A stretch of DNA of 60,897 nucleotides from Myxococcaceae bacterium (GTDB taxonomy: Bacteria; Myxococcota; Myxococcia; Myxococcales; Myxococcaceae), in the NCBI GenBank assembly GCA_044223505.1, contig JBGALX010000012.1, positions 218,174 to 279,070 on the forward strand, given 5' to 3'. How positions within the stretch are numbered: position 1 is the first letter of the stretch; each line of letters opens with the position of its first letter. Both the position numbers and the translations under genes were made by a program. Positions 6,321 through 60,642 of the stretch are shown here, one piece after another. The notes under the pieces were generated by a model that was not told the origin of the DNA, did not search any database, and was given only the letters and a program-made list of their open reading frames with translations.

Positions 6321-6346
6321 TGTGGTTCTCCTGCGGGGTTGGGGTT

Positions 6347-7117
6347 TCAGAACGAAGCGGCGAGGCCGACGGACCCGCCGTTGCCGCTGACCGAAACGAC
6401 GGGCGCGATACGAAGACGGCTCTGCTCGCGCGCGTCGTGCACCTCGGCGGCGCTGTCGGCCTGCGCGGCGGCGACGAAGCCGTCGATCGCGAAGAACGCC
6501 ATCGACATCGACGACAGGCCCTGCGTCATGAACGGGCCGTACGGGAGGCGCAGGCCGAACGCGCCGAGCACGAGCTGGCTGGTGCCCGACACGAGCGAGA
6601 GCACGTAGGTGAGCCAGCCGAGCGCCCGGCTGCCGCCGCTGCCGGTGATGTTGTTGGCGTCGCGCGCCGAGCCCGCGCCGCCCGCGACGATGGGCGCCAT
6701 GATCACGCCCGTGCCGTGCAGCGCGAGCCGGAGCGGCAGCTGCACCGACGTCTCGTCGAGGAACAGCTCGTTGAACGCCGTCGCGCCGGCCAGGGTGCCC
6801 GCGAACACGAGGCCCATCACCGCGGCGCCGCGCGCCCAGCCGGCGGTCGGCCGCGGCTCGCTGCGCTCGAGCTCGATCACCGGCACCTGCACGATCGGCG
6901 CGACCGCAGCGACCGGCGAGACGAGCGGAGCGGCCGGCAGGCACTCGCCGTTCGCCGTGCAGGTCTCGCCTGCGGCGCACAGCGGGTTGCACGCCGACAC
7001 GCACTGGGCCGCGATGCACACGAAGCCGCTGCGGCAGCCCGGGAAGCACGCGTCGGCCTGGGCGGCGGCGGCGACCGGGAGGATGAAGGCGACGAGACCG
7101 GCGGAGAGCTTGATCAT
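6347..7117 (-). CDS. Secreted protein with a Cys-rich N-terminal module and a Gly/Ala-rich C-terminal region ending in Phe (putative outer-membrane beta-barrel), 256 aa.
   Basis: Internal ATG at 7117 gives MIKLSAGLVAFILPVAAAAQA (signal peptide). It has 10 Cys in the first 60 mature residues, alternating hydrophobic/Gly stretches and a C-terminal ...LAASF (aromatic terminal residue typical of OMPs). Confidence 0.55.
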   Translation of the reverse strand: MIKLSAGLVAFILPVAAAAQADACFPGCRSGFVCIAAQCVSACNPLCAAGETCTANGECLPAAPLVSPVAAVAPIVQVPVIELERSEPRPTAGWARGAAVMGLVFAGTLAGATAFNELFLDETSVQLPLRLALHGTGVIMAPIVAGGAGSARDANNITGSGGSRALGWLTYVLSLVSGTSQLVLGAFGLRLPYGPFMTQGLSSMSMAFFAIDGFVAAAQADSAAEVHDAREQSRLRIAPVVSVSGNGGSVGLAASF

Positions 7118-7249
7118 GGCGGCCGACAGAGCAGCCGCTGTGCCCCGCGTTTGATTCGCCGGGTCGCGCACTTGGCGCGCGCGGCGTGGGACCGGAAGCG
7201 TCCATGAACTGTTCAGCCCCGGGTGTGCGGCGCTGTACTATTCGCCTCG

Positions 7250-17074: not shown

Positions 17075-18888
17075 GCGCGGCTCCTCAAGAGGCGCGCCAC
17101 CTGCTCGCAGACGTCGAACGGCTTCTGCAGCCACTCGTTCGGCACCGAGTCGAGAAAGCGCCGCGCCCGGTCGGTGAACGCGCCGCCCGTCATGAACACG
17201 AGCGCGCGCTCGGCTCCGGGCCGCTTCACCTTGAGCTCTTCGTAGACGTCCATGCCCGAGACGTCGCGCATCATCAGGTCGCAGAACACCAGGTCGAAGT
17301 GCTCGCCGCTCGTGAGCCGCTCGACCGCCTCGCGCCCCGACTGCACCACCACCACGTGGTGCTTCGCGAGCTCGAGCGCGCTCGCCATCACCCGCCCCAG
17401 GTTCACGTTGTCGTCGATGAGCAGCACGCGCGCCCCCTCGGGCCGCGTCGCGGGCGCCTCGGCGGGCAGCCGCACCCGGAACACCGCACCGCCCTCGCGC
17501 CGGTTCTCGACCTCGATGCGCCCCTTGAGCTCGCTCACCAGGTTGCGGCACACGAAGAGCCCCAGGCCCGTGCCTTCGCCGACGGCCTTCGTCGTCACGA
17601 AGGGCTCGAAGATGCGCTCGAGCAGCTCGGGCTTCACGCCCGCGCCCGTGTCGGCGACCTCGACCACCGCGTCGTGCGGCTCGGCGCGCGTCGCGACCCG
17701 AACCACGTGACCGCCCGGCCGCTCGACGTCGCGCACCGCGTGCACGGCGTTGAGCAGCAGGTTCATGAACACCTGCACCAGCCGCCGCTCGCTCGCCCTC
17801 ACGTGAACGCCGCTCGCGAGGTCGAGCGACAGCCGCGCCACCGGGTCGAGCTGGCTGCGCAGCATCTGCACCGCCGTTCGCACCGCGGACGAGACGTCGA
17901 CGCTCTGCATCGGCTCGTCGTCGCGCCGCGTGAACGTCTGCAGGTCCGACGTGATGACCCGCACGCGCTCGGCGCCCTCTTTCACGTCGGCGAGCAGCTG
18001 CCGCACCTCGGGCGTCGCGCCGCCCCCGAGCTCGCGCTCGATGCTGCGCAGGCCCTCGAGCACGTACGCGAGCGGGTTGTTGATCTCGTGTGCGACGCTG
18101 GCCGCGAGCGTGCCCATCGCCGCCATGCGCTCGGAGCGGAAGACCGCCGACTGCGCCGCGTGCCGCTCGGTGACGTCGGTCGTCACACCGATGATGCCCG
18201 TCACGCGCCCCGCGGCGTCGCGGAGCGGGCCCATCCACCCCTCGAGCACGGCGCCGTCGATGTGCGTCAGCGACGTGAACGACTCGCCGTCGAGCGCCCG
18301 CCGCATGTTCGAGATGACCCCGGCGTTGCTCGCGTACACCTCGAACACCGACTTGCCGATGAGCTCGCCCGGGCTGCGCCCCAGCGCCTTGAGGCCCGCG
18401 CCCTCCGAGAGCGTCACCACGCCGCGCGAGTCGGTCGTGAAGATGATGATGGGCGCGTGGTGCACCGCGAGGTCGAGCTGCATCTCGGCCGTGCGCTCGG
18501 CCGTGATGTCGAAGAACGACACCATCACCGCCTCGACGACGCCGCTCGCGCCGAAGAGCGGCTTGCCGTAGGCGCGCACGTGCACGCGCCGGCCGTCGCC
18601 GCGGTGCACGACGATGTCGTCGACCATCACGACGCTGCGCGCCTGCAGCGCCTGCACGAACGGCAGGCGCTCTTCGGGGTACGGCTGGCCGTCGCGCGTG
18701 AAGAGCCCGTACGGCTCGGAGTAGGCGCCCGCCGCCGCCCCGGTCACCGGGCCCATGCCCATGATCTCGTCGAACGCCTCGTTCGAGTACAGGTGCTCGC
18801 CGCCCGGAGCCCGCGCCACCCACACTCCGACGGGGAGCCCGCGCAGAATCGCGCTCGAGGTCTCGTGAGTCAGCGCGTTCAAAGTCAC
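17071..18888 (-). CDS. Hybrid sensor histidine kinase / response regulator with PAS domains (PAS-PAS-HisKA-HATPase_c-REC), cytoplasmic, 605 aa.
   Basis: H-box HEINNPLAYV, G-box DTGAGV...GTGLGL, and a receiver domain with LLIDDN...DLVFCDLMM. The start is placed at GTG 18886-18888, overlapping the TGA of ptsI. The upstream in-frame codons are Arg-rich antisense of ptsI. Confidence 0.8.
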   Translation of the reverse strand: MTLNALTHETSSAILRGLPVGVWVARAPGGEHLYSNEAFDEIMGMGPVTGAAAGAYSEPYGLFTRDGQPYPEERLPFVQALQARSVVMVDDIVVHRGDGRRVHVRAYGKPLFGASGVVEAVMVSFFDITAERTAEMQLDLAVHHAPIIIFTTDSRGVVTLSEGAGLKALGRSPGELIGKSVFEVYASNAGVISNMRRALDGESFTSLTHIDGAVLEGWMGPLRDAAGRVTGIIGVTTDVTERHAAQSAVFRSERMAAMGTLAASVAHEINNPLAYVLEGLRSIERELGGGATPEVRQLLADVKEGAERVRVITSDLQTFTRRDDEPMQSVDVSSAVRTAVQMLRSQLDPVARLSLDLASGVHVRASERRLVQVFMNLLLNAVHAVRDVERPGGHVVRVATRAEPHDAVVEVADTGAGVKPELLERIFEPFVTTKAVGEGTGLGLFVCRNLVSELKGRIEVENRREGGAVFRVRLPAEAPATRPEGARVLLIDDNVNLGRVMASALELAKHHVVVVQSGREAVERLTSGEHFDLVFCDLMMRDVSGMDVYEELKVKRPGAERALVFMTGGAFTDRARRFLDSVPNEWLQKPFDVCEQVARLLRSRA

Positions 18889-20642
18889 TCCGCTCCGCTG
18901 AAGCGCTTCTCCATCTCCATGCGCACGAAGCGTTCGATCTCTTCCGCCGTCGAGAACTCCATCGCGCGCTCGAGCAGCGACTGCGCCTCGGTGCGGCTCG
19001 TCTGTCGCACGATGCGCTTCACCGCCGCGAGCTGGCCTGCCGTCATCGAGAGCTCCTCGAAGCCGAGCGCCAGCAGCACGAGCGTGTACGTCGGGTCGCC
19101 CGCCATCTCGCCGCACATCGCGACGGGGATGCCGGCGTTCTTCGCCGCGCGCACGATGTTCTGCAGGCTGCGCAGCACGGCGAGGTGCAGCGGGCGATAG
19201 AGGTACGCGACGTCGCGGTTCTGCCGGTCGATCGCGAGCGAGTACTGGATCAGGTCGTTCGTGCCGATGCTGAAGAAGTCGGCCTCCTGGGCGAGCCGGT
19301 CGGCGATCCACGCGGCGCTCGGCGTCTCGACCATGATGCCCACCGGGAAGCGCTTGCCCACCGGCACGCCCGCGCGGCCCAGCTCGCTCTTGCAGTGCTC
19401 GAGCTCGCTGCGCGCCTCGCGCAGCTCCGACAGGCCGCTGATCAGCGGGAACATGATGCGAATGTTGCCGTGCGCCGATGCCCGCAGCATCGCGCGCAGC
19501 TGCACGCGGAACAGCTCGCGGTGGTGAAGGCAGTAGCGAATCGCCCGCAGGCCGAGCGCCGGGTTCGCCTCGCGCTCGGGCTTGCGGCCCGGCACCTTGT
19601 CGCCGCCCAGGTCGAGCGTGCGAATCGTGACGGGCCGGCCGCCCATCGCCTCGAGCACCTCGCGGTAGACCTTGTAGTGCTCCTCTTCGCTCGGAGCCTC
19701 GGTGCGGTTCAGGAACATGAACTCGGTGCGGTACAGGCCGATGCCTTCGGCGCCGTGCGCGAGCAGCGAGGGGATCTCTTCGGGGAACTCGATGTTCCCG
19801 TTCAGGTGAATCTGGTGGCCGTCGAGCGACACCGCGCGCAGCTCGGCCGTCTGCAGCGCCGTGGCCTCGGAGGCCTGGTGCCGCCGCATCGTCTCGCGGA
19901 ACAGCGCGAGCTGGGCGTCGGTCGGGTTGACCAGCACGAGGCCCTGGTTGCCGTCGACCGCGATGAGGTCACCCGGCCGAATCGAGTCGCTCGCGCGCCC
20001 CGCGCCGACCACGGCCGGCACCTCGCGCGCGCGCGCGACGATGGCGGTGTGGCTCGTCTGGCCGCCGAGGTCGGTGACGAACGCGGCGACCTTGCCGGTG
20101 CGCACCAGCAACGCGGCGTCGGCGGGCGAGACGTCGTGCGCGACGACGACCGAGTCGCTCGGCAGCTCGACCTCTTCGTCCATCGCGTGGCCGAGCAGGT
20201 TGCGCACGACGCGATCGGCGACGAAGTCGACGTCGGCCCGGCGCTCGCGAAAGTACTCGTCCTCCATGTTGTCGAACTGGTGCTTGATGCGGCGCGCGAC
20301 CCGGCGCACGGCCCACTCGGCGTTGATCGCCTCTTCCTGGATCAGCCGGTTCACCTCGACGATGAACATCGGGTCCTGCAGCATCAGCTTGTGCGCCTCG
20401 AGAATGAGGCCGTGGTCCTTGCTGCCGTCTTGCGAGTCGGTCTGCAGCTTCTCTTTGAGGTCGTCGAGCTGGCTCGACGAGAGCTCGACCGCCGTCTTGA
20501 AGCGCAGCGCCTCGGGGTCGATCTCACCGTCTTGCAGCTTCACCTTCGGAGTGCGGACGCGCCGGTTGTCGAGCACGTACGCGTGGCCGACCGCGACCCC
20601 CGGCGACGCTCCGATGCCCTTGAACGATTGCGTCGCGCTCAC
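18885..20642 (-). CDS. ptsI: Phosphoenolpyruvate-protein phosphotransferase, PTS Enzyme I.
   Basis: Full-length EI with the phospho-His region GGQTSHTAIVAR and a PEP-utilizing C-terminal domain (GIGLYRTEF..., MCGEMAGD). Confidence 0.92.
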   Translation of the reverse strand: MSATQSFKGIGASPGVAVGHAYVLDNRRVRTPKVKLQDGEIDPEALRFKTAVELSSSQLDDLKEKLQTDSQDGSKDHGLILEAHKLMLQDPMFIVEVNRLIQEEAINAEWAVRRVARRIKHQFDNMEDEYFRERRADVDFVADRVVRNLLGHAMDEEVELPSDSVVVAHDVSPADAALLVRTGKVAAFVTDLGGQTSHTAIVARAREVPAVVGAGRASDSIRPGDLIAVDGNQGLVLVNPTDAQLALFRETMRRHQASEATALQTAELRAVSLDGHQIHLNGNIEFPEEIPSLLAHGAEGIGLYRTEFMFLNRTEAPSEEEHYKVYREVLEAMGGRPVTIRTLDLGGDKVPGRKPEREANPALGLRAIRYCLHHRELFRVQLRAMLRASAHGNIRIMFPLISGLSELREARSELEHCKSELGRAGVPVGKRFPVGIMVETPSAAWIADRLAQEADFFSIGTNDLIQYSLAIDRQNRDVAYLYRPLHLAVLRSLQNIVRAAKNAGIPVAMCGEMAGDPTYTLVLLALGFEELSMTAGQLAAVKRIVRQTSRTEAQSLLERAMEFSTAEEIERFVRMEMEKRFSGAE

Positions 20643-20646
20643 GGCG

Positions 20647-20925
20647 TCACGATGGCTCCCCGAACCGGTTCTTCACCAGCACACCAATCTCGTCGACGCA
20701 CTGCTTCGCGCCTTCGCCCTCGCACTTCAGCGTCACCGTCATGCCCTGCGCCGCCGCGAGCATCAGCACGCCCATGATGCTCTTCGCGTTCACCGTCTGG
20801 CCCTCGCAGGTCAGCGAGACGTCGCACTTGTACCGGTTCGCGATCTTGACGAGCTGCGCCGCAGCGCGGGCGTGGAGCCCGAGCGCGTTGATGATCTCAA
20901 GATCGATGCTTGCGACGTCCATCAT
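20647..20925 (-). CDS. ptsH: Phosphocarrier protein HPr.
   Basis: MMDVASIDLEIINALGLHARAA carries the His-15 active-site context (GLHARA). It is about 92 aa and lies 4 nt upstream of ptsI. Confidence 0.85.
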   Translation of the reverse strand: MMDVASIDLEIINALGLHARAAAQLVKIANRYKCDVSLTCEGQTVNAKSIMGVLMLAAAQGMTVTLKCEGEGAKQCVDEIGVLVKNRFGEPS

Positions 20926-20953
20926 CCCCTCGGTGAGTCGGCGGCGGAGCGTC

Positions 20954-21709
20954 TCATTGAAGCGCCCCCGCCACAATGGCCAGCAGCGCCGAACCGTAGA
21001 GCGCCGCCCACCGCGAGCCCCGCGTCTCCGAGACGGCGAACGACAGCACCGCGATGAGCAGACATCCTCCGGTCAATAACGGCACCGACAGCCCGCTGCG
21101 GTGCGCGAACACCACGCTCAAGTACGCCGCCAGCGCTCCCGCCGCCGCCGCCGCCACCGCCCGCAGCCGCTCGCCCCAGCGCGGGATGTTGAGCTGCCCG
21201 AGCTTCGCCACCAGCCCGTCGCCGTGCAGGTAGCCGAGGCGGAAGAAGCGCGCCCGCGCCGTGAGGTGCACCGCGTTGAAGAGAAAGAGGAACAGCACCG
21301 CGCACCACACGCCGAGCAGCGGGTACAGGGCCGCGCTGACGGCCCCGCACGCCGGCCGCAAGCTGAACCAGAAGAAGCCGTCGCCGAGCGCCGCGAGCGG
21401 CCCCATCAGCGAGGCCTTGAAGTGCTCGGCCGACGAGGCCGGCGCCTCGCTGCGCGCCATGCGCTCCTCGTGGTGGAGGATGCCGCCCACGATCGCCGCC
21501 GCCACGTACGGGTGCGTGTTGAACGTCGTCGACAGGTGCCGCTGCACCGCCGCCGCCTCGGCCTGCGGCTCGGGGTACAGCGCCTTCAGCGCCGGCAAGA
21601 GCGCGTACGTGAGCCCGAGCGACTGCTGGCCCCGCGGGTTGTAGCCCGCCTGAATGAAGAGGCTGCGCCAGAACACGCGCGCGCGCACCGTGCGAGTCAG
21701 CGTCTTCAC
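20954..21709 (-). CDS. PTS mannose/fructose/sorbose-family EIID component.
   Basis: VKTLTRTVRARVFWRSLFIQAGYNPRGQQSLGLTYALLP... is the conserved IID N-terminus. GTG at 21707-21709 overlaps the TGA of the IIC gene. The upstream 313 codons of the track ORF are an Arg-rich artefact. Confidence 0.75.
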   Translation of the reverse strand: MKTLTRTVRARVFWRSLFIQAGYNPRGQQSLGLTYALLPALKALYPEPQAEAAAVQRHLSTTFNTHPYVAAAIVGGILHHEERMARSEAPASSAEHFKASLMGPLAALGDGFFWFSLRPACGAVSAALYPLLGVWCAVLFLFLFNAVHLTARARFFRLGYLHGDGLVAKLGQLNIPRWGERLRAVAAAAAGALAAYLSVVFAHRSGLSVPLLTGGCLLIAVLSFAVSETRGSRWAALYGSALLAIVAGALQ

Positions 21710-22410
21710 CCGCGGAACCTCCCGGTGAGGCCGAGCGCGAAGAGCATGGCGAGGGCGGCGGCGCCGGCGAGCGCCGCGGCCTTCTTCGAGTGGCTGCCCC
21801 GCACCGCGAGGCCCGCCGCGACCGAGGCCATCACCGGGTAGGCCCAGCTCAGCCCGCGCAAGAGCGGTGAGGGCAGAGCGCGCTCGAGCGGCTCGGCCGC
21901 GAACCCGAGCGCGGCGGCCGCAGCCGAGAGCAGCCCGAACGCGACGAAGTGCGGCCACATGCCCCAGAGGTTCTGGCGCGCGACGCGGTGGAAGTCTTCG
22001 CCCGAGGCGCTCGTCATGGCCTCGCCGAGGTAGCGCACGGCGCGGGCGTCGAACGCGTTCTCGATGGCGCGGCCGGCGGGGCCGAGCGGCGCGAAGAGAA
22101 TGATGCTGAGGCTCCAGATGGCGGTGGTGCCGGGCGAGTGGGCGGCGGCCGAGAGCGTCGAGGCGAAGGCGGCGGCGCAGACCGAGGGCAGGGTCTCGTG
22201 GTCCGAGTGCACTCCGCCGAGCGAGGCGGCGCCGAGCCAGTAGAGCTCGAACACGAGCCCGACGAAGAGGCCGGACTCGGCGTCTTCGAGCAACAGGCCC
22301 GTGCCGGTCGCGGCCACCAGCGGCCGGCTGAACATGGCCTGCAAGAACGCGCGCCGCTCGAGGGCCAGGAGGCCGCCCCAGAGGCCGGCCACGGTGAGGT
22401 GCAGCACCAT
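21706..22410 (-). CDS. PTS mannose-family EIIC component (234 aa, polytopic membrane protein).
   Basis: Hydrophobic multi-TM protein immediately upstream of and start-stop coupled to IID. The sequence pattern is consistent with IIC(Man) (e.g. ...LEDAESGLFVGLVFELYWLG...). Confidence 0.7.
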   Translation of the reverse strand: MVLHLTVAGLWGGLLALERRAFLQAMFSRPLVAATGTGLLLEDAESGLFVGLVFELYWLGAASLGGVHSDHETLPSVCAAAFASTLSAAAHSPGTTAIWSLSIILFAPLGPAGRAIENAFDARAVRYLGEAMTSASGEDFHRVARQNLWGMWPHFVAFGLLSAAAAALGFAAEPLERALPSPLLRGLSWAYPVMASVAAGLAVRGSHSKKAAALAGAAALAMLFALGLTGRFRG

Positions 22411-22449
22411 CGACGGACCTCTTAACTGATGGGCCCCTCGATGTGACGA

Positions 22450-25519: not shown

Positions 25520-25972
25520 TCAGCGCAGCGCTTGCGCGGGCTCGTTGGGCACGGCCTGAATGTTGACGGCGAGCCCGTCGCGGCTCAGGTCGAGCAGCTG
25601 GCGCTTCTCGTTCTCGGTGAGGAAGACGCTGCGGCTGACGGCGAGGCGCTCGGGGCCGGCGTGCACGTTGCCGAGGTTGAGGGGGCCGGTGAGGCCGAGC
25701 GCGTAGGCGCGAACGGCGGCCGGCACGTCGCGCAAGAGCACGAGGGTGCGGGGCGCGTCGTTGAGCAGCTTCTTGAACGGCACGTCGTCGACGCGGGCGA
25801 CGAGCACGTCGACGTCAGGCGGCACGGCGAGGCTCATCGCGGCGCGGGCGAGCGGGTCGGCGACCGTGACGTCGTCGGCCACGACGATGCGCTGAATCTT
25901 CAGGTGAGGCAGCCAGGTCTCGATCACCTGCCCGTGAATGAGGCGGCTGTCGACGCGGATGAGCGAGATCAC
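25520..25972 (-). CDS. PTS mannose/sorbose-family EIIB component.
   Basis: MISLIRVDSRLIHGQV contains the conserved IIB(Man) phospho-His motif (RIDDRLIHGQV-type). Confidence 0.8.
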   Translation of the reverse strand: MISLIRVDSRLIHGQVIETWLPHLKIQRIVVADDVTVADPLARAAMSLAVPPDVDVLVARVDDVPFKKLLNDAPRTLVLLRDVPAAVRAYALGLTGPLNLGNVHAGPERLAVSRSVFLTENEKRQLLDLSRDGLAVNIQAVPNEPAQALR

Positions 25973-26050
25973 AGCGGAGGAAACACTCCTGTACGACGGT
26001 CCGGTTCCGGCTCTAGCGCCGTCGCTCGGGCATGTCGAGCGTGCGGGCGC

Positions 26051-26473
26051 TCAGTGCGCCGGAACCCGCAGCGCGTCGCGCAAGAGCTGCGACGCCAGCG
26101 TGATGTTCCGCTGCCCGTACTGCACGAGCGCGTGCGCCAGCGCGTTCACCGTGAGGCCCTCGTGGCGCATCGACGCCGCCTTGATCACCATCGGCAGGTT
26201 CACGCCGCAGACGACCTCGAGGTTCGCCTTCGCGCACAGCGCCATCGACTCGCGGCACGGCGACCCACCGAACAGGTCGGCCAGCACCAGCACGCCGTCG
26301 CCTTGATCGACGCGCTGCACGGCCTCTTGAATGCGCTCGCGCAGCTGCTCGGCCGACGACCCCGGCTCGACCGAGCACCACGTCACCTGCGCGAGCACAC
26401 CGACGATCTGCTCGGCTGTCGAGAGCATCTCTTGCGCGAGCCTGCCGTGAGTGGCGACGACGAGACCGACCAT
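26051..26473 (-). CDS. PTS mannose-family EIIA component (140 aa).
   Basis: Internal ATG at 26473 gives MVGLVVATHGRLAQEMLSTAEQIVG (IIA-Man phospho-His region ...THG...). Confidence 0.8.
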   Translation of the reverse strand: MVGLVVATHGRLAQEMLSTAEQIVGVLAQVTWCSVEPGSSAEQLRERIQEAVQRVDQGDGVLVLADLFGGSPCRESMALCAKANLEVVCGVNLPMVIKAASMRHEGLTVNALAHALVQYGQRNITLASQLLRDALRVPAH

Positions 26474-26495
26474 CTCGAACCCAAGTATCGCTGAG

Positions 26496-26510
26496 GGCCC
26501 TCGCGTGCAA
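26496..26510 (-). promoter_or_regulatory. Candidate sigma-54 (-24/-12) promoter upstream of the PTS operon.
   Basis: The minus-strand sequence GGTGCACCTGTTGCA has GG-N10-GC spacing with a perfect TTGCA -12 element. It lies about 25 nt upstream of the IIA start. Confidence 0.35.
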
Positions 26511-26549
26511 CAGGTGCACCGCCGACCCCGGCGCGTTAAACACACATTC

Positions 26550-27194
26550 ATGGCTCTGCTCCTGCGCGCCTGGGCCGACTACGTCTGACCCTGGTGCTAC
26601 GTCGGCCAGGTCGTGGCCGAGCGATTCTCGAAGGACTACTCGTTCGACGGAAAGCCTGTGCCCGTCGACTGGCAGCCGTTCCTCTTGCGCCCCGACGCCC
26701 CCCTCGAGGGCTGGGCGCTGCCCGAGCGCATCAAGGCGATGAAGAACCGCCCCGACAACCCGCTGCACCTGCGGGCGAAGCAGCTCGGGCTGCCGCTCGT
26801 CGAGCGCGACTGGATTCCGAATTCGCGCCGCGCCCTCGCCGCCAACGAGTACGTGCGCGAGCTCGGCGGCCTCGAGAAGCTGCACGCGTACCACTCTGCC
26901 GTCAACGCGCGGTACTGGGGCCAGGGCGAAGACCTCTCGAAGCTCGACGTGCTCGAGGCCGCCGCCCGCGACGCCGGCATCGACCCGGCCGGCGTGCGCG
27001 AGGCCGTCGAGAGCGGCACGTACGACCAGCGCATCGACGACGGCATCGCGAAGGCGAACGCGATGGGCATTCACGCGGTGCCGACGTACGTCTTCTTCGA
27101 CGGCGAGCGGCCGATCGGCGCGATTCAGGGCGCGCAGGAGTACGCCGTCTTCGAGCGCGCCGCCGCCCAGCTCGGGCTCACGCCTCAGCGGTAG
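26550..27194 (+). CDS. DsbA/FrnE-like thioredoxin-fold oxidoreductase with an in-frame TGA at the first Cys position of the CxxC motif (candidate selenoprotein, U-P-W-C).
   Basis: ATG 26550 gives MALLLRAWADYV, then TGA (26586-26588), then PWCYVGQVVAERF... continuing as track ORF 26613..27194. A 7-bp stem-loop UCGGCCA-GGUCG-UGGCCGA (26602-26620) starts 13 nt after the UGA. If the TGA is a true stop, the remaining ORF lacks the catalytic motif. Confidence 0.55.
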
Positions 27195-27722: not shown

Positions 27723-28517
27723 TTACTTCGACAGCTGGCTCGAGAGCAGCTCGACGCAGCCGGTGACCGCGCGCTGCGCGTTCGACTTCGACGCGTAGGT
27801 CTCGCTGCGGGCGATGATGGCGCCGTTCGCGGCCTTCAGGTGGAAGTAGTACTGGCCGTCGGCCGCCGCGAGCACCGTGTAGCGGGCCGCGATGGCGCCG
27901 TTCGTGTTCACCGAGATGGCGCCGTTCGTCGCCGACGTCTTCGACGCGTACGACTGCGACTGCAGCACGATCTCGCCGTTCAGCGCGCGCACGTGGAAGT
28001 AGTACTTCGAGTCGAGACCCTTGAAGACCTCGAACTTCGCGTCGCCCGTGATGGCCAGGCCCTGCGCCACCGTCTGCTTCACCACCGTCGCCACCGACGT
28101 CATCGCGCGCGTCGCGTTCGACTGGCTCACGTACATCTCGCTCGCCGCCAGAATGTCGCCGTTCGCCGCCGACGCGACCACGAAGTACCAGCTGCCGTCG
28201 CTCGCCTCGCGGAGCAGGTACTTGCTCGCATCCTGGCCGTTCGCCTTCAGCGACTCGATGCCCGACAGCGCGCTCGCCTGCGTCGCGTAGCCCTGCGACT
28301 GCAGCACCTTCTCGCCGTTGCCCGCGAGCAGGTGGAAGTACGTCTTCCCGTCCTTGCCCACGAACGTCTCGAACTTGCCCTTCGCGCTCAGCGCCTCGTC
28401 GTTCACCTGGTACTCGTCGGCAGGCGACCCGACCTCGGTCGTGTCTTCGGCCCCGACGCCGCAGGCAGTGAAGGAGAGCGCGAACAGCGAAACGAGGATT
28501 TTGAAGTTGGAGTTCAT
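27723..28517 (-). CDS. Lipoprotein made of four tandem YegP/DUF1508-like repeats (264 aa).
   Basis: MNSNFKILVSLFALSFTACG has lipobox FTAC. The block KFE(T/V)F(V/K)G.DGK.YFHL.A.NGE.(V/I)L.SQ.Y recurs four times. The K/N/S/Y-rich composition is atypical for this genome. Confidence 0.75.
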   Translation of the reverse strand: MNSNFKILVSLFALSFTACGVGAEDTTEVGSPADEYQVNDEALSAKGKFETFVGKDGKTYFHLLAGNGEKVLQSQGYATQASALSGIESLKANGQDASKYLLREASDGSWYFVVASAANGDILAASEMYVSQSNATRAMTSVATVVKQTVAQGLAITGDAKFEVFKGLDSKYYFHVRALNGEIVLQSQSYASKTSATNGAISVNTNGAIAARYTVLAAADGQYYFHLKAANGAIIARSETYASKSNAQRAVTGCVELLSSQLSK

Positions 28518-28627: not shown

Positions 28628-30124
28628 ATGTCGAACACGCTTGAAGAGGAGCTCCACGCCGCGACCGGCATGGAGGGCGTCGCGCGCCGGCTGGTCGAGG
28701 TCGCTTGCGAGCGAACGGGGTCGCGGCACGGCGCGGTGTTTCTGTGGGACGCGAAGCTGAAGGCGCTGACGGTCGACTTCCACGTGGTCGAGGGCGTCAT
28801 CGTGGCGCTGCCCGGGACGGGGGCGGTCTTGCGGCCGCGGCGCGACGGGCGGCCGAGCGGCATCGCGGTGAGCTGCTTCGAGAGCGGGCAGCCGTACGTC
28901 TGCAACGACACCGAGCGCGACCCGAACTACGCGCGCTACTTCCTCGAGGTGGGGTCGGTGCTGGCGGTGCCGATTCCGTACCAGGGCAAGCCGCTGGGCG
29001 TGCTGACGGTGAGCGCGTCGAAGAAGCACGCGTTCGACTCGACGCACGTGGCGGCGCTCGAAGAGGTCGCCGAGGCGAGCGCGAAGTTTCTGCGGCGCGC
29101 GGCGCTCGCGCGCACGGCGAGGGCCGACGGCCGGCCGTTCGTCATCAAGGGGCTGTCGCCGCAGTGGCTCGAGGTCGAGAAGCGGCTCGAGAAGGTGGCG
29201 TCGACCGACGCTCCGGTGCTGGTGACCGGCGAGAGCGGCACCGGCAAGGACCTCGTGTCGCGGGCGATTCACTTCAACAGCCGGCGCGCGGGCAAGCCGT
29301 TCGTGACGGTGAACTGCGCGGCCATCCCCGAGACGCTGCTCGAGAGCGTGCTGTTCGGGCACGTGAAGGGCGCGTTCACCGGCGCGACGTTCAACAAGGT
29401 GGGCGAGTTTCAGAAGGCCCACGAGGGCACGCTGTTCCTCGACGAGCTCGGCGAGCTGCCGCTGATGCTGCAGGCGAAGGTGCTGCGCGCGATCGAGCAG
29501 GGCGAGGTGACTCCGCTCGGGAGCAACGAGGCGCCCGAGCACGTCGACGTGCGGCTCATCTGCGCGACGAACCGCAACCTCGCGCAGATGGCGCACGAGG
29601 GGCGGTTTCGCGAAGACCTCTACTACCGGGTCGGCGTCGTGACCGTCGAGCTGCCGCCGCTGCGCAGCTACAAGGACAACCTCGAGATTCTCTCGCAGGT
29701 GTTCCTGCAGCAGGCGGCGCAGCGGCACGGGCGCAAGGTGTCGCGCATCGCGCGCGAGGCCGTCGACGCGCTGAACGCGTACGACTTTCCCGGGAACGTG
29801 CGCGAGCTGAAGAACGCGCTCGAGCACGCGGTCATCATGTCGGCCGGCGACGAGGTGCGCGCCGAAGACCTGCCTGCCGTGATGCGGGGCGGAGCCGCCG
29901 CCAAGGTCGCTGCGGCGCCGGCTCCCAAGCCGAGCGCTCCGCGGACGCTGGCGCAGCTGCGCGACGAGTGGCTGGCTCCGCACGAGAAGGCGTACGTGCA
30001 GCAGCTGCTCGAGGCGAGCGCCGGCAAGGTCGACGACGCCGCGAAGCGCGCGGGGGTGAACCGCGTGACCTTCTACCGGCTGATGACCAAGCACGGCATC
30101 AAGCTGCGCAAGACGGCGGCCTGA
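28628..30124 (+). CDS. Sigma-54-dependent transcriptional activator with an N-terminal GAF domain (GAF-AAA+-HTH).
   Basis: Motifs GESGTGKD, GAFTGA, and the C-terminal HTH AGVNRVTFYRLM. The N-terminal 160 aa are GAF-like. Confidence 0.85.
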   Translation: MSNTLEEELHAATGMEGVARRLVEVACERTGSRHGAVFLWDAKLKALTVDFHVVEGVIVALPGTGAVLRPRRDGRPSGIAVSCFESGQPYVCNDTERDPNYARYFLEVGSVLAVPIPYQGKPLGVLTVSASKKHAFDSTHVAALEEVAEASAKFLRRAALARTARADGRPFVIKGLSPQWLEVEKRLEKVASTDAPVLVTGESGTGKDLVSRAIHFNSRRAGKPFVTVNCAAIPETLLESVLFGHVKGAFTGATFNKVGEFQKAHEGTLFLDELGELPLMLQAKVLRAIEQGEVTPLGSNEAPEHVDVRLICATNRNLAQMAHEGRFREDLYYRVGVVTVELPPLRSYKDNLEILSQVFLQQAAQRHGRKVSRIAREAVDALNAYDFPGNVRELKNALEHAVIMSAGDEVRAEDLPAVMRGGAAAKVAAAPAPKPSAPRTLAQLRDEWLAPHEKAYVQQLLEASAGKVDDAAKRAGVNRVTFYRLMTKHGIKLRKTAA

Positions 30125-37033: not shown

Positions 37034-37131
37034 GGGCGATGCGATAACGACGTCACATTTTCGCGTGCAGCGGCGTTACCGGGCCGACACCCTTCCCGTG
37101 GTAGCCTGCGTGTCGCGTCGGGGCCGGTGAA

Positions 37132-38775
37132 GTGGAGCCAAGCGTGAGCTGGGTAGCCCTCGTCGGACCCGAGATCGAAGAGAACCTGTCGCTGCGCTAC
37201 CTCGCGAGCGCGCTGAAGCGGGCGGGCTACGACTGCGAGCTCCTCGCGTACAACGGCGGCCCCGCGCTGCCGGGCATCGTGCAGCGCATCGTCTCGACCG
37301 ACTCGCCGCCGCTGCTCGTCGGCATCTCGATGGCGTTTCAGTGGCGCGCCCCCGACATGCTCGCGCTCGCCGTCGCGCTCAAAGAGGCGGGCTACCGCGG
37401 CCACGTCACCGCGGGCGGCCACTTCGCGACGTTCGCCGCGAAGGACATGCTGAACGACTTCCCCGAGCTCGACTCCATCTGCCGGCAGGAGGCCGAAGAG
37501 ACGCTCGTCGAGCTGTGCCGCACCATCGAGGCGGGCCGCGACTGGTCGGCGCTCGCCGGCCTCGCGGTGCACACGAGCGAGGGCCCGCGCATCAACGCGA
37601 TGCGCTCGGCGCCCGAGCTGTCGGGGCTCGCGTGGCCCGACCGGCGCGGGGCTCCGGCCGAGTGCTTCGGGCACCGCATCGCTCCGTTGGTGTCGACGCG
37701 AGGCTGCTACGCGAACTGCAGCTTCTGCTGCATCGCCGCGTGGCACGAGATGGCGCTGCCCGGGAAGCGGTACCGCGAGCGGCCGCTCGAAGACGTCGCC
37801 GACGAGATGGCGGCCGAGCACTTCGGGCGCGGCATCGAGATCTTCGTCTTCCACGACGACAACTTCTTCCTGCCCTCGGGCGTGAAGAACGCCGAGCGGC
37901 TGAACCGGCTCGCCGACCTGCTCGAGGCGCGCGGCGTGAAGCGCTTCGCGACCGTCGTGAAGGCGAGGCCGACCGACGTGCAGCCGAAGGCCTTCGAGAC
38001 GCTCGTGAAGCGGCTGCACTGCATTCGCTGCTACGTCGGCATCGAGACCGACGCCGACCAGGGGCTGCAGACGCTCAACCGCTGGGCCCGCTCGAAGCAC
38101 AACTGGGAGGCCATGGAGCGCATCGACGCCCTCGACCTCTACACCTGCTTCAACATGCTGCTGTTCGACCCCGACACCACGCTCGAGAGCGTCGAAGACA
38201 ACCTCGACTTCATGGAGGCGCACGCCCACTGCCCGTTCAACTTCGGGCGCACCGAGCTGTACGCGGGCACTCCGCTCTTGCACCGCATGCAGGCCGAGGG
38301 GCGCGCGCGCGGCGACTGGCTGCAGTGGGACTACAGCCTGAAGGACTCGGGCATCGAGCGCGTGTTCCAGATGGCCGCGAGCGCGTTCTACGAGCGCAAC
38401 TTCGCCGTCGATGGCCTCGCGAACACGATGATGTCGACGCGCTTCGACATCGAGGTGGTGAAGCGCTTCCACGCCGAGCAGCTGCGGCCCGAGTGGCCGG
38501 CCGCCGCGAAGGAGCTGTCGAGGAAGCTCGGTCGTGACAGCGTCGCCGGCATGCGCCGGCTGCTCGCGCACGTGCGGGCTCGCGAAGACGGCGACGCCGA
38601 GCTCGCGCAGGAGCTCGCGCTCGGGCTGCGCGAGACCGAGCAGCGGCTGAAGGGTGAGGCCCGCGCGCTCGCGCGCGAGGTGGCCGGCGTGGTCGGAGGA
38701 GCTCCGCTCACGGACGTGGGCGACAAGGTGGCGACGCCGCTGCAGCGCGCGCGCTTCGAGGAGGCACGGTCATGA
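37132..38775 (+). CDS. B12-binding domain radical SAM protein (class B rSAM), 547 aa.
   Basis: N-terminal cobalamin-binding Rossmann pattern (VALVGPEIEENLSLRYLASALKRAGYDCELL) and the radical SAM cluster motif CYANCSFC (CxxxCxxC). Confidence 0.85.
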   Translation: MEPSVSWVALVGPEIEENLSLRYLASALKRAGYDCELLAYNGGPALPGIVQRIVSTDSPPLLVGISMAFQWRAPDMLALAVALKEAGYRGHVTAGGHFATFAAKDMLNDFPELDSICRQEAEETLVELCRTIEAGRDWSALAGLAVHTSEGPRINAMRSAPELSGLAWPDRRGAPAECFGHRIAPLVSTRGCYANCSFCCIAAWHEMALPGKRYRERPLEDVADEMAAEHFGRGIEIFVFHDDNFFLPSGVKNAERLNRLADLLEARGVKRFATVVKARPTDVQPKAFETLVKRLHCIRCYVGIETDADQGLQTLNRWARSKHNWEAMERIDALDLYTCFNMLLFDPDTTLESVEDNLDFMEAHAHCPFNFGRTELYAGTPLLHRMQAEGRARGDWLQWDYSLKDSGIERVFQMAASAFYERNFAVDGLANTMMSTRFDIEVVKRFHAEQLRPEWPAAAKELSRKLGRDSVAGMRRLLAHVRAREDGDAELAQELALGLRETEQRLKGEARALAREVAGVVGGAPLTDVGDKVATPLQRARFEEARS

Positions 38776-43541: not shown

Positions 43542-44324
43542 TCAACGCGCCGGCGCTGCGGCGAGGTGCGCGAAGTTCTCTCGCGCGTGCAGCCAGAACA
43601 TCGCGACGGCGGCGGCCGACGTCACGTGCCAGAGCGCGTGACCCTGCCACGGCGACTCGGGCGCGCAGAGCGGCATGCCGTCGATGGCCGAGAAGTGCCA
43701 CACGACGACCCCGAGCCCGAACACGAGCACTCCGCTGCGGAACCAGCGCTTCGGCAGACGCGGGTCGCGCCGGTGCAGCCAGACCTCGCTGCCCATCACC
43801 GAGACGACGACGACCATGACGAGGTTGCCGGTGAGCGTGGGCGCCACGAGGCCGAGCCCGGCGCCGCCCACCAGGAACGCGAGCCAGAGCGGCACGAGGC
43901 CGCGCTCGCCGAGCCGGCCCATGCGGAAGAGGTTCACCCCGGCGAGCATGCCGACGACCGCGAACATGCTCGTCGCGTCGACCGCGCCGGACCAGGCCGT
44001 GAGCGAGGCGTGGAAGAACATCGAGCCCAGGCCCTGGAACACGAGCGTCAGCGCGAAGACGAGCCCGAGCGCGCGCGGCAGCCGTGCCGCTGCGGGCCGC
44101 CCGGCGTCGCGCGCGACCGCGATCGCCGCCAGCAGCGGAGCCAGGTTCGACCACGTGTTCACCGGCTGCCGCCACAAGCCCTGCGCGGGGGCCTCGCAGT
44201 AACAGAGCACGCTGGTGCAGTCGATCGGCTCGCCCGGCCAGCCGAGCAGCGCGAAGCCCGCGAGCGTGCCAAGGCCGGCGGCGATGGCCGCGAGGGTCCA
44301 CCCGAGGGTCGCACGGCCGCTCAC
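43542..44324 (-). CDS. 7-TM membrane hydrolase of the alkaline-ceramidase-like (CREST) superfamily (260 aa).
   Basis: Seven hydrophobic helices. Conserved His positions in helices (FFHASL, WLHRRD, GHALWHV with HxxxH) fit the ceramidase/PAQR-type metal site. Confidence 0.55.
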   Translation of the reverse strand: MSGRATLGWTLAAIAAGLGTLAGFALLGWPGEPIDCTSVLCYCEAPAQGLWRQPVNTWSNLAPLLAAIAVARDAGRPAAARLPRALGLVFALTLVFQGLGSMFFHASLTAWSGAVDATSMFAVVGMLAGVNLFRMGRLGERGLVPLWLAFLVGGAGLGLVAPTLTGNLVMVVVVSVMGSEVWLHRRDPRLPKRWFRSGVLVFGLGVVVWHFSAIDGMPLCAPESPWQGHALWHVTSAAAVAMFWLHARENFAHLAAAPAR

Positions 44325-44357
44325 GCAGGCCCGATGTAGCGCGGCTCGGTGAGCCGG

Positions 44358-45599
44358 TCAGCGCCCGGCGGTCTTCTTCACCAGCTCCCGCGGCGTCGGA
44401 GGCCTCGGGTCGGGCGCGTCGAACGGCTCCTCGCGGAGCTCGAAGCGGCCGTTGTCGAACGGCAGGCCCGGCGCGGCCTCGCGCAGCACGAGCCGCTCGC
44501 GCAGCCCGCGGGCCTTCAGCGCCCGGGCGCGGTGGTGGCAGTAGGGGTTGTTGCCCGGCCGCCCGAACATCGCGTGCGCGGTGAACGTGCAGCCGCCCAT
44601 GCAGGTCTCTGCGTACGCGCACGTCCGGCAGTAGCCCCAGAGGTCTTCGACGGTGCGGCGCCGCGCGAACGCGAGCTCGGGCGCGTGCTCCCAGAGGTCT
44701 TTCAAGGGGCGCTCGCGCAGGTTGCCTCCGACGTACTCGGCGGTCTGCAGCGACGGGCAGCCCTTCACGGCGCCGTCGGACTCGATGCCCAGCACCTGTC
44801 TTCCCGCGCGGCAGCCGTGGAAGTGCTCGGTGAGGCCGGGAGGCGAGCGGAGCACGGCCTCCTCGGGGCCGAAGTAGCCCAGGTTGTTGCCGGGCACGAT
44901 GAGCAGCCGCGCCTCGGCCCACGCGCGCTTCTTCAGCGCGGCGATGCGAGGCACGAGCTCGACGAGGTCCCACGGCTGCAGCAGCATCGCGGGGCGATCT
45001 GCCGCGCGCCCGAGCGGAGCCGTCAGCTGCACCTGCCACGCCGTGACGCCGAGCTCCTTCAGCACCTCGTAGAGCGGCTCGAGGTCGGCGTGGTTGAGGC
45101 GGTTCAGGTTGATGTTCGAGCCGGTCGCGATGCCGGCGGCCTTCGCGTGCCGCAGCGCCGCCGTCGCCGCGTCGAAGCCGCCGCGCGTCGCCCGCATCAG
45201 GTCGTGCGTGGCCTGCAGCCCGTCGATGCTGACCGACACGGTGTGCAGCCCGGCCTCGGCCATCGCCGCCGCGAGCTCGGGCGTGAGGCCGCGGCCGCCG
45301 GTCGTCATCGAGGGCCGAATGCCGTGGGCCTTCAGCGCGCGAATGACGTCGAGGAAGCCCGGGTGCAGGTAGGCCTCGCCGCCGATGAGCACCACCTCGA
45401 ACGTGCCCATCGCCGCGAGCTGCTCGACGACGCCGAGCGCCTGCTCGGTCGAGAGCTCGACGTCGCGGGCCTCTTGCGCGCGCGAGCCGCAGTGCGTGCA
45501 GCGCTGATCACACGCGAGCGTGAGCTCCCAGACGACGTACAGCGGCGTCGGCGGCTCGCGCACGTCGAAGCGACGCAAGAGGTCGTCGCGGCTCGCCAT
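44358..45599 (-). CDS. Radical SAM / SPASM-domain protein (AslB/PqqE-like peptide-modifying maturase family), 413 aa.
   Basis: Internal ATG at 45599 (MASRDDLLRR...). The rSAM motif is CDQRCTHC (CxxxCxxC). A C-terminal SPASM Cys cluster follows (GCRAG...GCPSL...CRTCAYAETCMGGC...YCHH). Confidence 0.85.
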   Translation of the reverse strand: MASRDDLLRRFDVREPPTPLYVVWELTLACDQRCTHCGSRAQEARDVELSTEQALGVVEQLAAMGTFEVVLIGGEAYLHPGFLDVIRALKAHGIRPSMTTGGRGLTPELAAAMAEAGLHTVSVSIDGLQATHDLMRATRGGFDAATAALRHAKAAGIATGSNINLNRLNHADLEPLYEVLKELGVTAWQVQLTAPLGRAADRPAMLLQPWDLVELVPRIAALKKRAWAEARLLIVPGNNLGYFGPEEAVLRSPPGLTEHFHGCRAGRQVLGIESDGAVKGCPSLQTAEYVGGNLRERPLKDLWEHAPELAFARRRTVEDLWGYCRTCAYAETCMGGCTFTAHAMFGRPGNNPYCHHRARALKARGLRERLVLREAAPGLPFDNGRFELREEPFDAPDPRPPTPRELVKKTAGR

Positions 45600-45604
45600 C
45601 GTGG

Positions 45605-45937
45605 CTACTCGCCGCCGTCGGTCTTGCCGCCGTCGGTGGCGCCGGCCTTGCAGCCCACGGCGTACTCGGGGTCGTTCGCCTTGATGCCGCCGTCGGGCAG
45701 CACGTGGTTGCAGACGTCGGAGCTGCACTCGTCGATGCCGCCGTCGCCGAGCGCCGCGCTCGTGCAGGGCGCTCCGTAGATGGCGACGATGCACGCCTGA
45801 AACGCGCTCGCTCCGAGCAGCCCGAGCGGAGCGAGCCACCAGCCGCGCTTCGAGCTCGGCGACGGTGAGAACGCGCAGTTCGGGCAGCGGTGGTCGGGGT
45901 TGGGGACGAAGCTTCGGCACTCGGGGCAGCGCAGCAT
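45605..45937 (-). CDS. Small membrane-anchored protein (110 aa): N-terminal zinc-ribbon (CPEC...CPNC), one TM helix, and a Cys/Gly/Asp-rich C-terminal tail. Candidate substrate/precursor of the adjacent rSAM/SPASM enzyme.
   Basis: Internal ATG at 45937 (MLRCPECRSFVPNPDHRCPNC...). TM is WWLAPLGLLGASAFQACIVAIYGA. The tail PCTSAALGDGGIDECSSDVCNHVLPDGGIKANDPEYAVGCKAGATDGGKTDGGE has 5 Cys and DGG repeats. The gene ends 5 nt before the rSAM start. Confidence 0.55.
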   Translation of the reverse strand: MLRCPECRSFVPNPDHRCPNCAFSPSPSSKRGWWLAPLGLLGASAFQACIVAIYGAPCTSAALGDGGIDECSSDVCNHVLPDGGIKANDPEYAVGCKAGATDGGKTDGGE

Positions 45938-46197
45938 CAGTTTTTCCTCGGGGTGGCTCGGCCGGCCCGGGCTCTGTGCAAGGGCTGATCCGGCGCGGAA
46001 CTCACGCGGAATCGCCGCGGTGCATGCATGCTCCACTGCCCCTGAGGGTGGAGCGCGACGCGCAAGTCGCCGTGAGCTCGCGGTCGGCCGCGCTCGAAGG
46101 CGCGCTGACACGTCAGGCAGGGGTCGAGCTTCGCGCTGTCGGCGCCGCTACTCGTGTGGGCGATCGAGCTGTCGCGCGCGCTCACGCAGCCGTCACA

Positions 46198-54351: not shown

Positions 54352-55161
54352 CTACGGCCCGCACCGAAAGCCGCCGTCGTCGGCGGGGCCGCAGCCGGCG
54401 TCGCAGCGGCTCGGGCATGCCACCGTGCAGCTCGACGAGGCGCCTCGTACGCGGCACGCGCTCGACGCCCTGCAGTCGACCGTCGTGTTCACGCAGTTCG
54501 GCGGGAGGAAGACGTCGCAGGTGCCGGCACTGCATACGATGGGTCGGCCTCCGCACGCGTTGACGCCGTTGCACGAGATGTTGCACGCGCCCGCGTCGCA
54601 GACGATCGGCGCCAGGGTGAACGTGCACGCGTTGGCGAGCGGGCCGCAGCTGAGGTCGCAGCGTGCTCCGCTGCAGCCGACCGGGCCGTTGCACCCGTCT
54701 TGGCTGCAGTGCAGGTCGCAGCTCGACGCTCTGCCGCAGTCGACGGTGGAGCAGCCGAAGGCACAGCCGAGGCGGCAGGCTCCGCGGCTGCACAAGACCG
54801 TGGAGCACGCGAAGGCTCCGTCGCAGAGAATCTCGCAGTCGGTCGCGGGCCCGCAGTCGACGTCGCGCCGCGAGCCACCGAAGACGAAGACGCTGCACGG
54901 CATGCCCGCGGCGCACGCGCAGCCTCCGTCCGCGCCGCACACCACCGAGCACGCGCCGCCGACGCAGCCGTTGTTGCACTCGGCTGGGCAGAAGCCCGCG
55001 TCGTAGCCGCCGTCGTAGTCGCTGCCGCCGTCGTGACCGCCGTCATCGCCGCCGTCGCGCCCCGCATCGGCGCCGGAGTCGGCGCCGCCGCCGACGCCTC
55101 CATCCGGCACCGGGCCTGGCGTACACGCCACCGACAGCAGCAGCGCGTAGAAGCCCCGCAT
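54352..55161 (-). CDS. Cys-rich lipoprotein (269 aa, about 45 Cys) with an Asp/Gly-rich linker, start-stop coupled (TGATG) to isocitrate lyase.
   Basis: [16 protein letters not shown] has lipobox SVAC. A DGG/DAG-rich linker is followed by repeated CxxxC modules. Confidence 0.65.
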   Translation of the reverse strand: MRGFYALLLSVACTPGPVPDGGVGGGADSGADAGRDGGDDGGHDGGSDYDGGYDAGFCPAECNNGCVGGACSVVCGADGGCACAAGMPCSVFVFGGSRRDVDCGPATDCEILCDGAFACSTVLCSRGACRLGCAFGCSTVDCGRASSCDLHCSQDGCNGPVGCSGARCDLSCGPLANACTFTLAPIVCDAGACNISCNGVNACGGRPIVCSAGTCDVFLPPNCVNTTVDCRASSACRVRGASSSCTVACPSRCDAGCGPADDGGFRCGP

Positions 55162-57410: not shown

Positions 57411-57470
57411 GGCGGCGCATGGTAGCGAAAGCGCCCCCGTCGCGTTCGTCAGAATGCACGCGCAAAAATT

Positions 57471-60488: not shown

Positions 60489-60642
60489 GAGCGCGAGCGT
60501 AGCCACGCACTCCGTGACAGTCGTGAGAAATGAGATTGTCGCGACTGCGGCGCCGCGGTGGCGCTTGTCGCCAGCCACGGTGACCGATTTCGTCAGCGGA
60601 ACGAAATCTGCACACCGTGTACGCCGCGCGGGGTCAGGGGCG

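Follow-up and report, generated by a model that had tools for sequence, protein, structure and literature searches.

A DsbA/FrnE-like gene of a Myxococcaceae bacterium with a probable selenocysteine codon and a putative bacterial SECIS hairpin

The DNA analysed here is a stretch of 60,897 nucleotides from a Myxococcaceae bacterium (contig JBGALX010000012.1), which at its full length is called the window. It contains a gene for a thiol-disulfide oxidoreductase of the DsbA/FrnE type in which a TGA stands in frame at the first position of the redox motif. We consider it probable, at about 0.9, that the UGA at 26586 encodes selenocysteine (Sec), and that its decoding is directed by a hairpin in the messenger at 26602-26620, which would be a bacterial selenocysteine insertion sequence (bSECIS) element. 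The reading is carried by the alternation between TGA and cysteine codons among related genes, and by the conservation of the hairpin, with compensatory base changes, in the genes which have the TGA.

The gene and its reading frame

Direct reading of the frame from the ATG at 26550 gives MALLLRAWADYV-TGA(26586-26588)-PWCYVGQVVAERF..., and the frame continues to a TAG at 27192-27194. Translated through the TGA the protein reaches its C-terminus, ...AAAQLGLTPQR, at residue 214. Cys16 is its sole cysteine, and the redox pair would therefore be U13/C16. The open reading frame (ORF) has a G+C content at third codon positions (GC3) of 0.95, which is typical for the expressed genes of the window, and the sequence of the window is here 71% GC. 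The Met start is kept in the related loci L001-L003 and L085-L087 of the survey described below.

Automatic annotation makes the gene begin at a GTG inside the hairpin, and the resulting ORF of 193 codons is identical to the public database protein P0001. The sequence-only reading from which this work started had located the start codon, the TGA, the hairpin and the annotated ORF at the positions used here, had put the TGA at the first cysteine of the FrnE/DsbA motif, and had claimed that a standard annotation would lose the catalytic motif. All of its coordinates were right, the alignments with homologs and with FrnE agree on the identity of the codon, and P0001 does start at GTG 26613 and has neither of the redox residues.

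After replacement of U by C the full-length protein matched the Pfam family DSBA (PF01323) with E=2e-26 and 93.4 bits against a cut-off of 25.6. The match spans residues 7-204 and profile positions 4-189 of 191. The domain, beginning at residue 7, thus starts before the GTG of the annotation, and the product predicted from that GTG has neither the first strand nor the two redox residues. No NCBIfam model matched the DsbA-like protein. The best match among solved structures was FrnE of Deinococcus radiodurans (5CNW/5CP1, E=1.4e-13, residues 6-190 aligned), in which WSDIACPWCYIGK of 5CNW aligns on WADYVUPWCYVGQ with its CPWC over UPWC. The dipeptide V177-P178 is invariant in the family alignment, and from the established knowledge of the DsbA/thioredoxin fold we take it to be the cis-Pro loop.

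It could be argued that the UGA is the true stop of a peptide of 12 residues, that the hairpin is regulatory (coupling or attenuation), and that the protein is made from GTG 26613, in which case two products would arise from the region. This GTG is the start picked by the gene callers and it lies within the loop, where melting of the hairpin could control initiation. Against this, the supposed leader together with the next 8 codons corresponds to DSBA profile positions 4 to ~25 and aligns with the active site of FrnE, and a protein starting at residue 22 would lack both redox residues. Moreover, the downstream start is not conserved in the other Sec-type clades, where the called starts vary (P0003, P0017, P0068). 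We regard this arrangement as extremely unlikely.

Alternation of TGA and cysteine codons in related genes

Relatives were collected by a genome scan in which one genome was taken per species, giving 80 loci, and the codon corresponding to the first Cys was read in each of them. It is TGA in 51 of the 80 loci and TGC or TGT in the remaining 29; the window's own clade adds three TGA loci (L085-L087) and two Cys loci. The alternation of TGA with TGC that the sequence-only reading had suggested looking for is thus present at the exact codon. The TGA loci fall in four phylum-level groups: Myxococcota, Desulfobacterota, Chloroflexi and Binatia. Some are from sequenced isolates (Archangium lansingense, A. 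violaceum, A. gephyra, Vitiosangium sp. and two Pyxidicoccus), others from metagenome-assembled genomes (MAGs), which include many Myxococcota, Desulfobacterales, Desulfomonile and Desulfatibacillum, one Chloroflexi and one Binatia. All TGA loci have the peptide W-[AS]-D-[YF]-[VI] in frame upstream of the codon, and begin with a Met 11-14 codons before it.

The closest database homologs are of two kinds, N-truncated calls of 175-193 aa (~88% query coverage) versus full-length proteins of 200-213 aa. The full-length homologs read ...W[AS]DYVCPWCY[VI]G..., and the Cys forms from within the clade, P0005 and P0011, read ...RAWADYVCPWCYVGQ....

The possibility that the true codon is TGC, and that the TGA is an error of sequencing or assembly, draws some support from the probable origin of the window in a MAG, its closest relatives being all from MAGs or metagenome contigs, and single-base errors do occur. 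However, the Logan assembly of run SRR28480386 (L081), which is independent, contains the exact sequence of the window including the TGA, as a check against such an error would require, and the closest relatives from unrelated samples, with 52-88% protein identity, all have TGA. The chance that the TGA is an error is practically nil.

The hairpin and its conservation

The hairpin has a 7-bp stem, which begins at a distance of 13 nt from the UGA, and its loop begins at a distance of 20 nt. The consensus for bSECIS elements prescribes a loop of 3-9 nt, an upper stem of 4-16 bp, a distance of 16-37 nt from UGA to loop, a G in the first two loop positions followed by G/U, and a minimum free energy of -7.5 kcal/mol or lower (PMC13188914). 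The hairpin in the window lies within all of these limits, with a 5-nt loop, a 7-bp stem, GGU in the loop, a spacing of 20 nt and an energy of -12.6 kcal/mol. The RNA folding check proposed by the sequence-only reading gave a divided answer: the isolated hairpin of 23 nt, to which this energy refers, has z=-3.2, but segments of 40-65 nt do not exceed GC-rich shuffles in stability. Folding energy was dropped as a criterion for this reason and covariation was used instead.

When the U of the UGA is numbered 1, positions 17-23 pair with 29-35 in the window, and the hairpin has the same register in every Sec-type locus (43 distinct sequences). The arms differ from clade to clade. They are GGCCA/UGGCC in the window's clade, where the encoded peptide is VGQVVAE; GGCCUC/GAGGUC in the Archangium-type clade, with (V/I)GL(V/G)EV; GGUCU(C/G)/GAGAUC in L024, L025, L027 and L031, with VGLVEI; GGCA/UGUC in Desulfomonile (L047, L055), with IGMGIVE; and CAUUAC/GUAUUG in Desulfobacterales and Binatia, with FITGRI(D/E). 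Pairs 19-33, 21-31, 22-30 and 23-29 are of GC type in some clades and of AU type in others, these clades encoding different peptides, and the G at loop position 25 (G26610) is invariant in the Sec forms.

Over the 43 Sec-type sequences 89.8% of the cells were paired, against 75.6±1.4% in shuffles, and double-change cells numbered 59 against 21±3.3; in both cases none of the 500 shuffles reached the observed value. Compensatory double changes were found at five of eight pairs. The covariation score was 0.488 in register and 0.024-0.145 after shifts of the register by 1-3 nt, which leave just 28-53% of the cells paired. Since sliding the register does not alter how the sequences are related, the signal goes beyond what shared ancestry alone would give. 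In the Cys-type control (29 sequences) 59.9% were paired in register compared with 59.1% at slide -1, and therefore the Cys forms have no register-specific signal. The hairpin, which the sequence-only reading had wanted to see in orthologs, is accordingly kept with compensatory changes in the Sec-type genes and not in register in the Cys-type genes.

Within the window's clade the seven Sec-type sequences (the window, L001-L003 and L085-L087; 52-88% identity) all carry UCGGCCAGGUCGUGGCCG(A/G). In L087 a Glu has changed to Gly, yet a U-G pair remains in the hairpin. Of the Cys-type relatives the closest (P0005/L082, 66% identical) has kept the 5' arm and lost the 3' arm, leaving 2 of 7 pairs, and the Cys-type P0011/L084 has kept 5 of 7.

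These data bear on the alternative that a DsbA/FrnE gene of Cys type lost its function by a nonsense mutation (TGC to TGA) and is now decaying or gives a truncated inactive product. The two codons differ by a single base, the gene calls in the databases begin downstream at GTG 26613, and the machinery for Sec was not seen in the window. A pseudogene is nevertheless difficult to reconcile with the same TGA in 51 of 80 loci over Myxococcota, Desulfobacterota, Chloroflexi and Binatia, with obvious in-frame purifying selection on the start codon, the 12 upstream codons and the rest of the gene, and with a GC3 like that of the expressed genes in the window. It also leaves unexplained a covarying hairpin of fixed register found only in TGA forms. 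We consider inactivation highly unlikely.

Replacement of Sec by Cys

In a neighbour-joining tree of 86 family members Sec is the majority state throughout the Myxococcota clade. About seven Cys lineages are nested among the Sec forms: L020; L082/L084; L040; L021; L022/L036; L004/L011/L019; and L028. Sec forms always keep 6-7 of the 7 stem pairs, and the nested Cys forms keep from 2 to 7 (L011 7, L020 and L019 6, L082 2). The pairing between +17 and +35 in L011, L019 and L020 suggests a recent Sec-to-Cys replacement after which the hairpin has not yet decayed. L020, which is Myxococcus dinghuensis, has TGT at the codon and stands as a Cys-type gene among Sec-type relatives.

The pattern fits repeated replacement of Sec by Cys followed by decay of the hairpin that was no longer needed, in line with the 'dynamic evolution' described in PMC1794560; a distance tree is the sole basis for the direction of change. 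A wider proposal, which we put forward tentatively and hold to be somewhat less probable than its negation, is that the hairpin is a family-specific element which travelled with the gene, by inheritance or horizontal transfer, through Myxococcota, Desulfobacterota, Chloroflexi and Binatia, and that Sec is ancestral in the aerobic soil myxobacteria with about seven replacements by Cys. If this is true the gene family would be a natural time series of SECIS erosion after the loss of Sec.

Decoding of the UGA and function of the protein

The mechanism we propose is that UGA 26586 would be bypassed as a stop in translation because the hairpin 13 nt downstream, with its 7-bp stem and the loop GGUCG, would serve as a bSECIS element. 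The element would presumably bring SelB carrying Sec-tRNA(Sec) to the ribosome, leading to insertion of Sec. The enzyme would then cycle between selenol/thiol and selenylsulfide (Se-S) with Sec13 as the N-terminal nucleophile, and thereby reduce or isomerise disulfides of cytoplasmic substrates. In this scheme SelB dependence, the incorporation of selenium and the substrates are the parts which we infer.

The protein is expected to be cytoplasmic because its active site starts at residue 13, which leaves no space for a signal peptide. A cytoplasmic location would imply a reductase or isomerase and not an oxidant of secreted proteins. The homology with FrnE of D. radiodurans likewise points to a cytoplasmic redox role, and most likely the protein functions there as a thiol-disulfide reductase or isomerase with a selenylsulfide stage in its cycle.

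A number of observations weigh against decoding as Sec. ARAGORN found no tRNA in the 60.9-kb window, so there is no tRNA-Sec there, and none within 3 kb of the 51 Sec-type homolog loci; domains of SelA, SelB or SelD were absent from the ~40 window ORFs scanned with Pfam, and no selA, selB or selD was seen beside any homolog locus. No clear Shine-Dalgarno sequence was seen upstream of ATG 26550, and the 76-nt region between the gene and its divergent neighbour has no match to the sigma-70 consensus. Relative to dinucleotide shuffles the folding energy has z=+0.31 for a 65-nt segment and z=-0.68 for a 40-nt segment. The conservation of the hairpin within the clade is partly confounded by amino-acid conservation and by shared ancestry. 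A scan of the whole window with Rfam at the gathering threshold gave no match, and a permissive scan of 26500-26720 gave only chance matches of microRNA type on the opposite strand; the lack of an Rfam match is no evidence against the hairpin, because Rfam has no model of such short bacterial SECIS hairpins.

The Sec machinery of the organism has indirect support, since a conserved and covarying SECIS element would have no reason to persist without SelB. Among cultured Myxococcales, Sec users are found in Myxococcus, Corallococcus, Cystobacter, Stigmatella and Anaeromyxobacter (Table S2, Peng et al., PMC5029168).

The UGA might also be decoded without selenium, either by a reassigned code (Trp or Gly) or by near-cognate read-through (Trp or Cys) independent of a SECIS element. 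UGA is the leakiest of the stop codons, and the machinery for Sec is in this genome only presumed. On the other hand TGA is the stop of 25 of the 32 confident ORFs in the window, and therefore the genetic code is standard and the recoding specific to the site. Trp or Gly in place of the catalytic Cys of CxxC would kill the enzyme, and the conserved hairpin with its invariant loop G fits the SelB-dependent bSECIS model. Decoding without selenium is in our opinion very unlikely. Sequencing error, pseudogene and alternative code are rejected because the TGA and its flanks are conserved, the independent assembly has the same sequence, and TGA is otherwise used as a stop.

A composition-based scan of the window for other selenoprotein genes with an in-frame TGA gave four sites, at 4810 and 5203 (+) and at 11697 and 39280 (-), none of them with a redox motif; owing to its filter on upstream composition the scan did not find the TGA of the DsbA-like gene again, and it is blind to Sec codons that closely follow a start codon. 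The four sites have coding-like GC3 on both sides and most likely represent antisense shadows or the ends of genes. Those at 4810 and 5203 lie in a region, ~4180-7205, where a minus-strand ORF of 1008 aa competes with short plus-strand ORFs and where gene calls based on composition are unreliable. A same-frame junction between a kinase and a PEGA gene at 8546 was also considered and was found to be two ordinary genes.

Surrounding genes

The positions of the features are collected in Table 1. The divergent pairing with the EIIA gene is kept in L085 (1-2859), in L086 (1-298) and in the P0029 locus. In L085, where the orthologous protein is 88% identical, the neighbourhood as such is conserved. 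Together with the nearby sigma-54 activator the pairing may indicate a functional or regulatory coupling with the selenoprotein gene. In the Cys-type relative L083 a LysR regulator and a small ORF are inserted between the homolog of the selenoprotein gene and EIIA.

The convergent ORF which overlaps the 3' end of the gene had no match in Pfam or NCBIfam; in the independent assembly L081 a gene of 120 aa is called at its position on the same relative strand. The gene with the DUF1508 repeats has a first-position GC of 0.57, which is unusually low for the genome. The two radical SAM loci, which may be lipid- or peptide-modifying, are unrelated to the selenoprotein.

Table 1. Features of the window discussed in the text, with positions counted from its first nucleotide.
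Feature	Position	Strand	Remarks
Full coding sequence of the putative selenoprotein, a DsbA/FrnE-like thiol-disulfide oxidoreductase	26550..27194	+	214 codons including the predicted Sec13, then TAG; from translation and Pfam
UGA probably read as Sec, residue 13, first position of U-P-W-C	26586..26588	+	alignment with first Cys of CPWC
Redox motif U-P-W-C (TGA CCC TGG TGC)	26586..26597	+	direct reading
Putative bacterial SECIS hairpin	26602..26620	+	5' arm UCGGCCA 26602-26608, loop GGUCG 26609-26613, 3' arm UGGCCGA 26614-26620
Truncated ORF from automatic annotation	26613..27194	+	GTG start, 193 aa, without first strand and catalytic motif
Val177-Pro178, presumed cis-Pro loop of thioredoxin-fold proteins, facing the active site	27078..27083	+	V177 and P178 invariant in family alignment
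Divergent intergenic region, selenoprotein gene / EIIA(Man) of the phosphotransferase system (PTS)	26474..26549	.	76 nt; presumed promoters for both
Mannose-family PTS cluster, EI	18885-20672	-	divergent from selenoprotein gene
Mannose-family PTS cluster, HPr	20647-21072	-	divergent from selenoprotein gene
Mannose-family PTS cluster, IIC	21706-22449	-	divergent from selenoprotein gene
Mannose-family PTS cluster, IIB	25520-26050	-	divergent from selenoprotein gene
Mannose-family PTS cluster, EIIA	26051-26473	-	divergent from selenoprotein gene
Convergent ORF, ~120-136 aa	27185-27595	-	GC3 0.90; overlaps 3' end of selenoprotein gene by 10 nt
Probable lipoprotein with four DUF1508/YegP-like repeats	27723-28517	-	N-terminus MNSNFKILVSLFALSFTAC; conserved neighbour in L085
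GAF-domain sigma-54 activator	28628-30124	+	conserved downstream neighbour in L085
B12-binding radical SAM gene	37105-38775	+	
Radical SAM/SPASM gene beside ceramidase-like membrane protein	43542-46001	-	
1060-aa patatin/DUF3376 protein, then same-frame 769-aa isocitrate-lyase-family gene	55161-60653	-	

The selenoprotein family and its annotation

A DsbA-like selenoprotein with UxxC (COG2761/PF01323) was first reported from the Sargasso Sea metagenome, with 9 sequences and a predicted SECIS element (Zhang, Fomenko & Gladyshev 2005, PMC1088965), and in 2006 such a protein was reported from Anaeromyxobacter dehalogenans, Desulfovibrio desulfuricans and Desulfotomaculum reducens (PMC1794560). 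These two papers confirm the statement of the sequence-only reading that UxxC DsbA-like selenoproteins are known in Deltaproteobacteria and myxobacteria. By 2016 the known genes numbered 45, from 41 bacteria, which made the family approximately the tenth most widespread among bacterial selenoproteins (PMC5029168). A review from 2026 lists it as "DsbA-like protein form 1, PF01323, UxxC" and points out that nearly all such selenoprotein families rest on bioinformatics alone (PMC13188914). We found no literature on selenocysteine under the name 'FrnE-like', nor on SelB of Myxococcales; the family has been published as 'DsbA-like'.

The survey adds many unannotated members, from Archangium, Vitiosangium and Pyxidicoccus and from MAGs of Chloroflexi and Binatia. 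The same unannotated TGA is found in L005-L010, L013 and L017, which are isolates of the three genera named first. The loci L001 (JAEUJP010000846.1) and L003 (JADJNS010000001.1) have N-truncated public entries, and the NCBI homologs MBL8957356.1 and MBK7857158.1 (187 aa each) are N-truncated at the Sec codon and named 'DsbA family protein'. The practical value of the finding is thus in annotation, since dozens of orthologs, among them those of the sequenced Archangium, Vitiosangium and Pyxidicoccus isolates, are stored as truncated "DsbA family protein" without their active site and no NCBIfam model exists to rescue these entries. The correction would add a selenoprotein to the soil myxobacteria, for each of which only 1-3 are reported as known. 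With 43 Sec-type and 29 Cys-type sequences the survey also gives a clean comparative set for the register of a SECIS element inside a coding sequence and for its decay after a change from Sec to Cys. The current understanding of Sec decoding is unchanged by the gene in the window.

Comparison with known systems

The SECIS element of E. coli fdhF, taken from NC_000913.3, is like the hairpin of the window a stem-loop inside the coding region directly downstream of the UGA, and in both the apical loop begins GGUC and is closed by an A-U pair. In fdhF the loop starts 18 nt and the upper stem 11 nt after the UGA, compared with 20 and 13 nt here, and the loop has 4 nt and not 5. The sequence-only reading had called the two hairpins alike; this holds for the GGUC of the loop and for the similar spacing, but the upper stem of fdhF has a bulged U, whereas the stem in the window is a continuous helix of 7 bp without bulge. 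Unlike fdhF, the window hairpin is also without the long lower helix that pairs back to the UGA region. Neither type of hairpin is recognised at this place by a model of Rfam.

With FrnE of D. radiodurans the protein shares the active site W-x-D-x-x-C-P-W-C-Y-[VI]-G, the V-P loop and the lack of a signal peptide, and the difference at the active site is that FrnE has Cys where the window protein would have Sec. The FrnE chain has 260 aa and the alignment ends at chain residue 203, which leaves ~55 C-terminal residues of FrnE beyond the window protein. This tail presumably carries an extra CxxxxC motif. A second C-terminal cysteine pair is not present in the window protein, which ends shortly after the domain. 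As the C-terminal extension is absent we call the protein FrnE-like and not a strict orthologue of FrnE. The periplasmic DsbA of E. coli likewise has a thioredoxin fold into which a helical domain is inserted, together with a redox motif of CxxC type (Pfam DSBA), but its motif is CPHC compared with UPWC here, and a signal peptide is not possible in the window protein.

The closest likeness is to DsbA-like form 1, with which the gene shares the Pfam domain, a UxxC motif with Sec predicted at its first position, Cys-containing homologs, a putative bSECIS element directly downstream of the UGA, and an occurrence in delta-type proteobacteria including a myxobacterium. There is no categorical difference; the gene in the window is an unannotated member from an uncultured lineage resembling Myxococcaceae/Archangiaceae. 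It has every feature by which DsbA-like form 1 is defined at the level of sequence, and judged by these features it is a real but ordinary member of that family.

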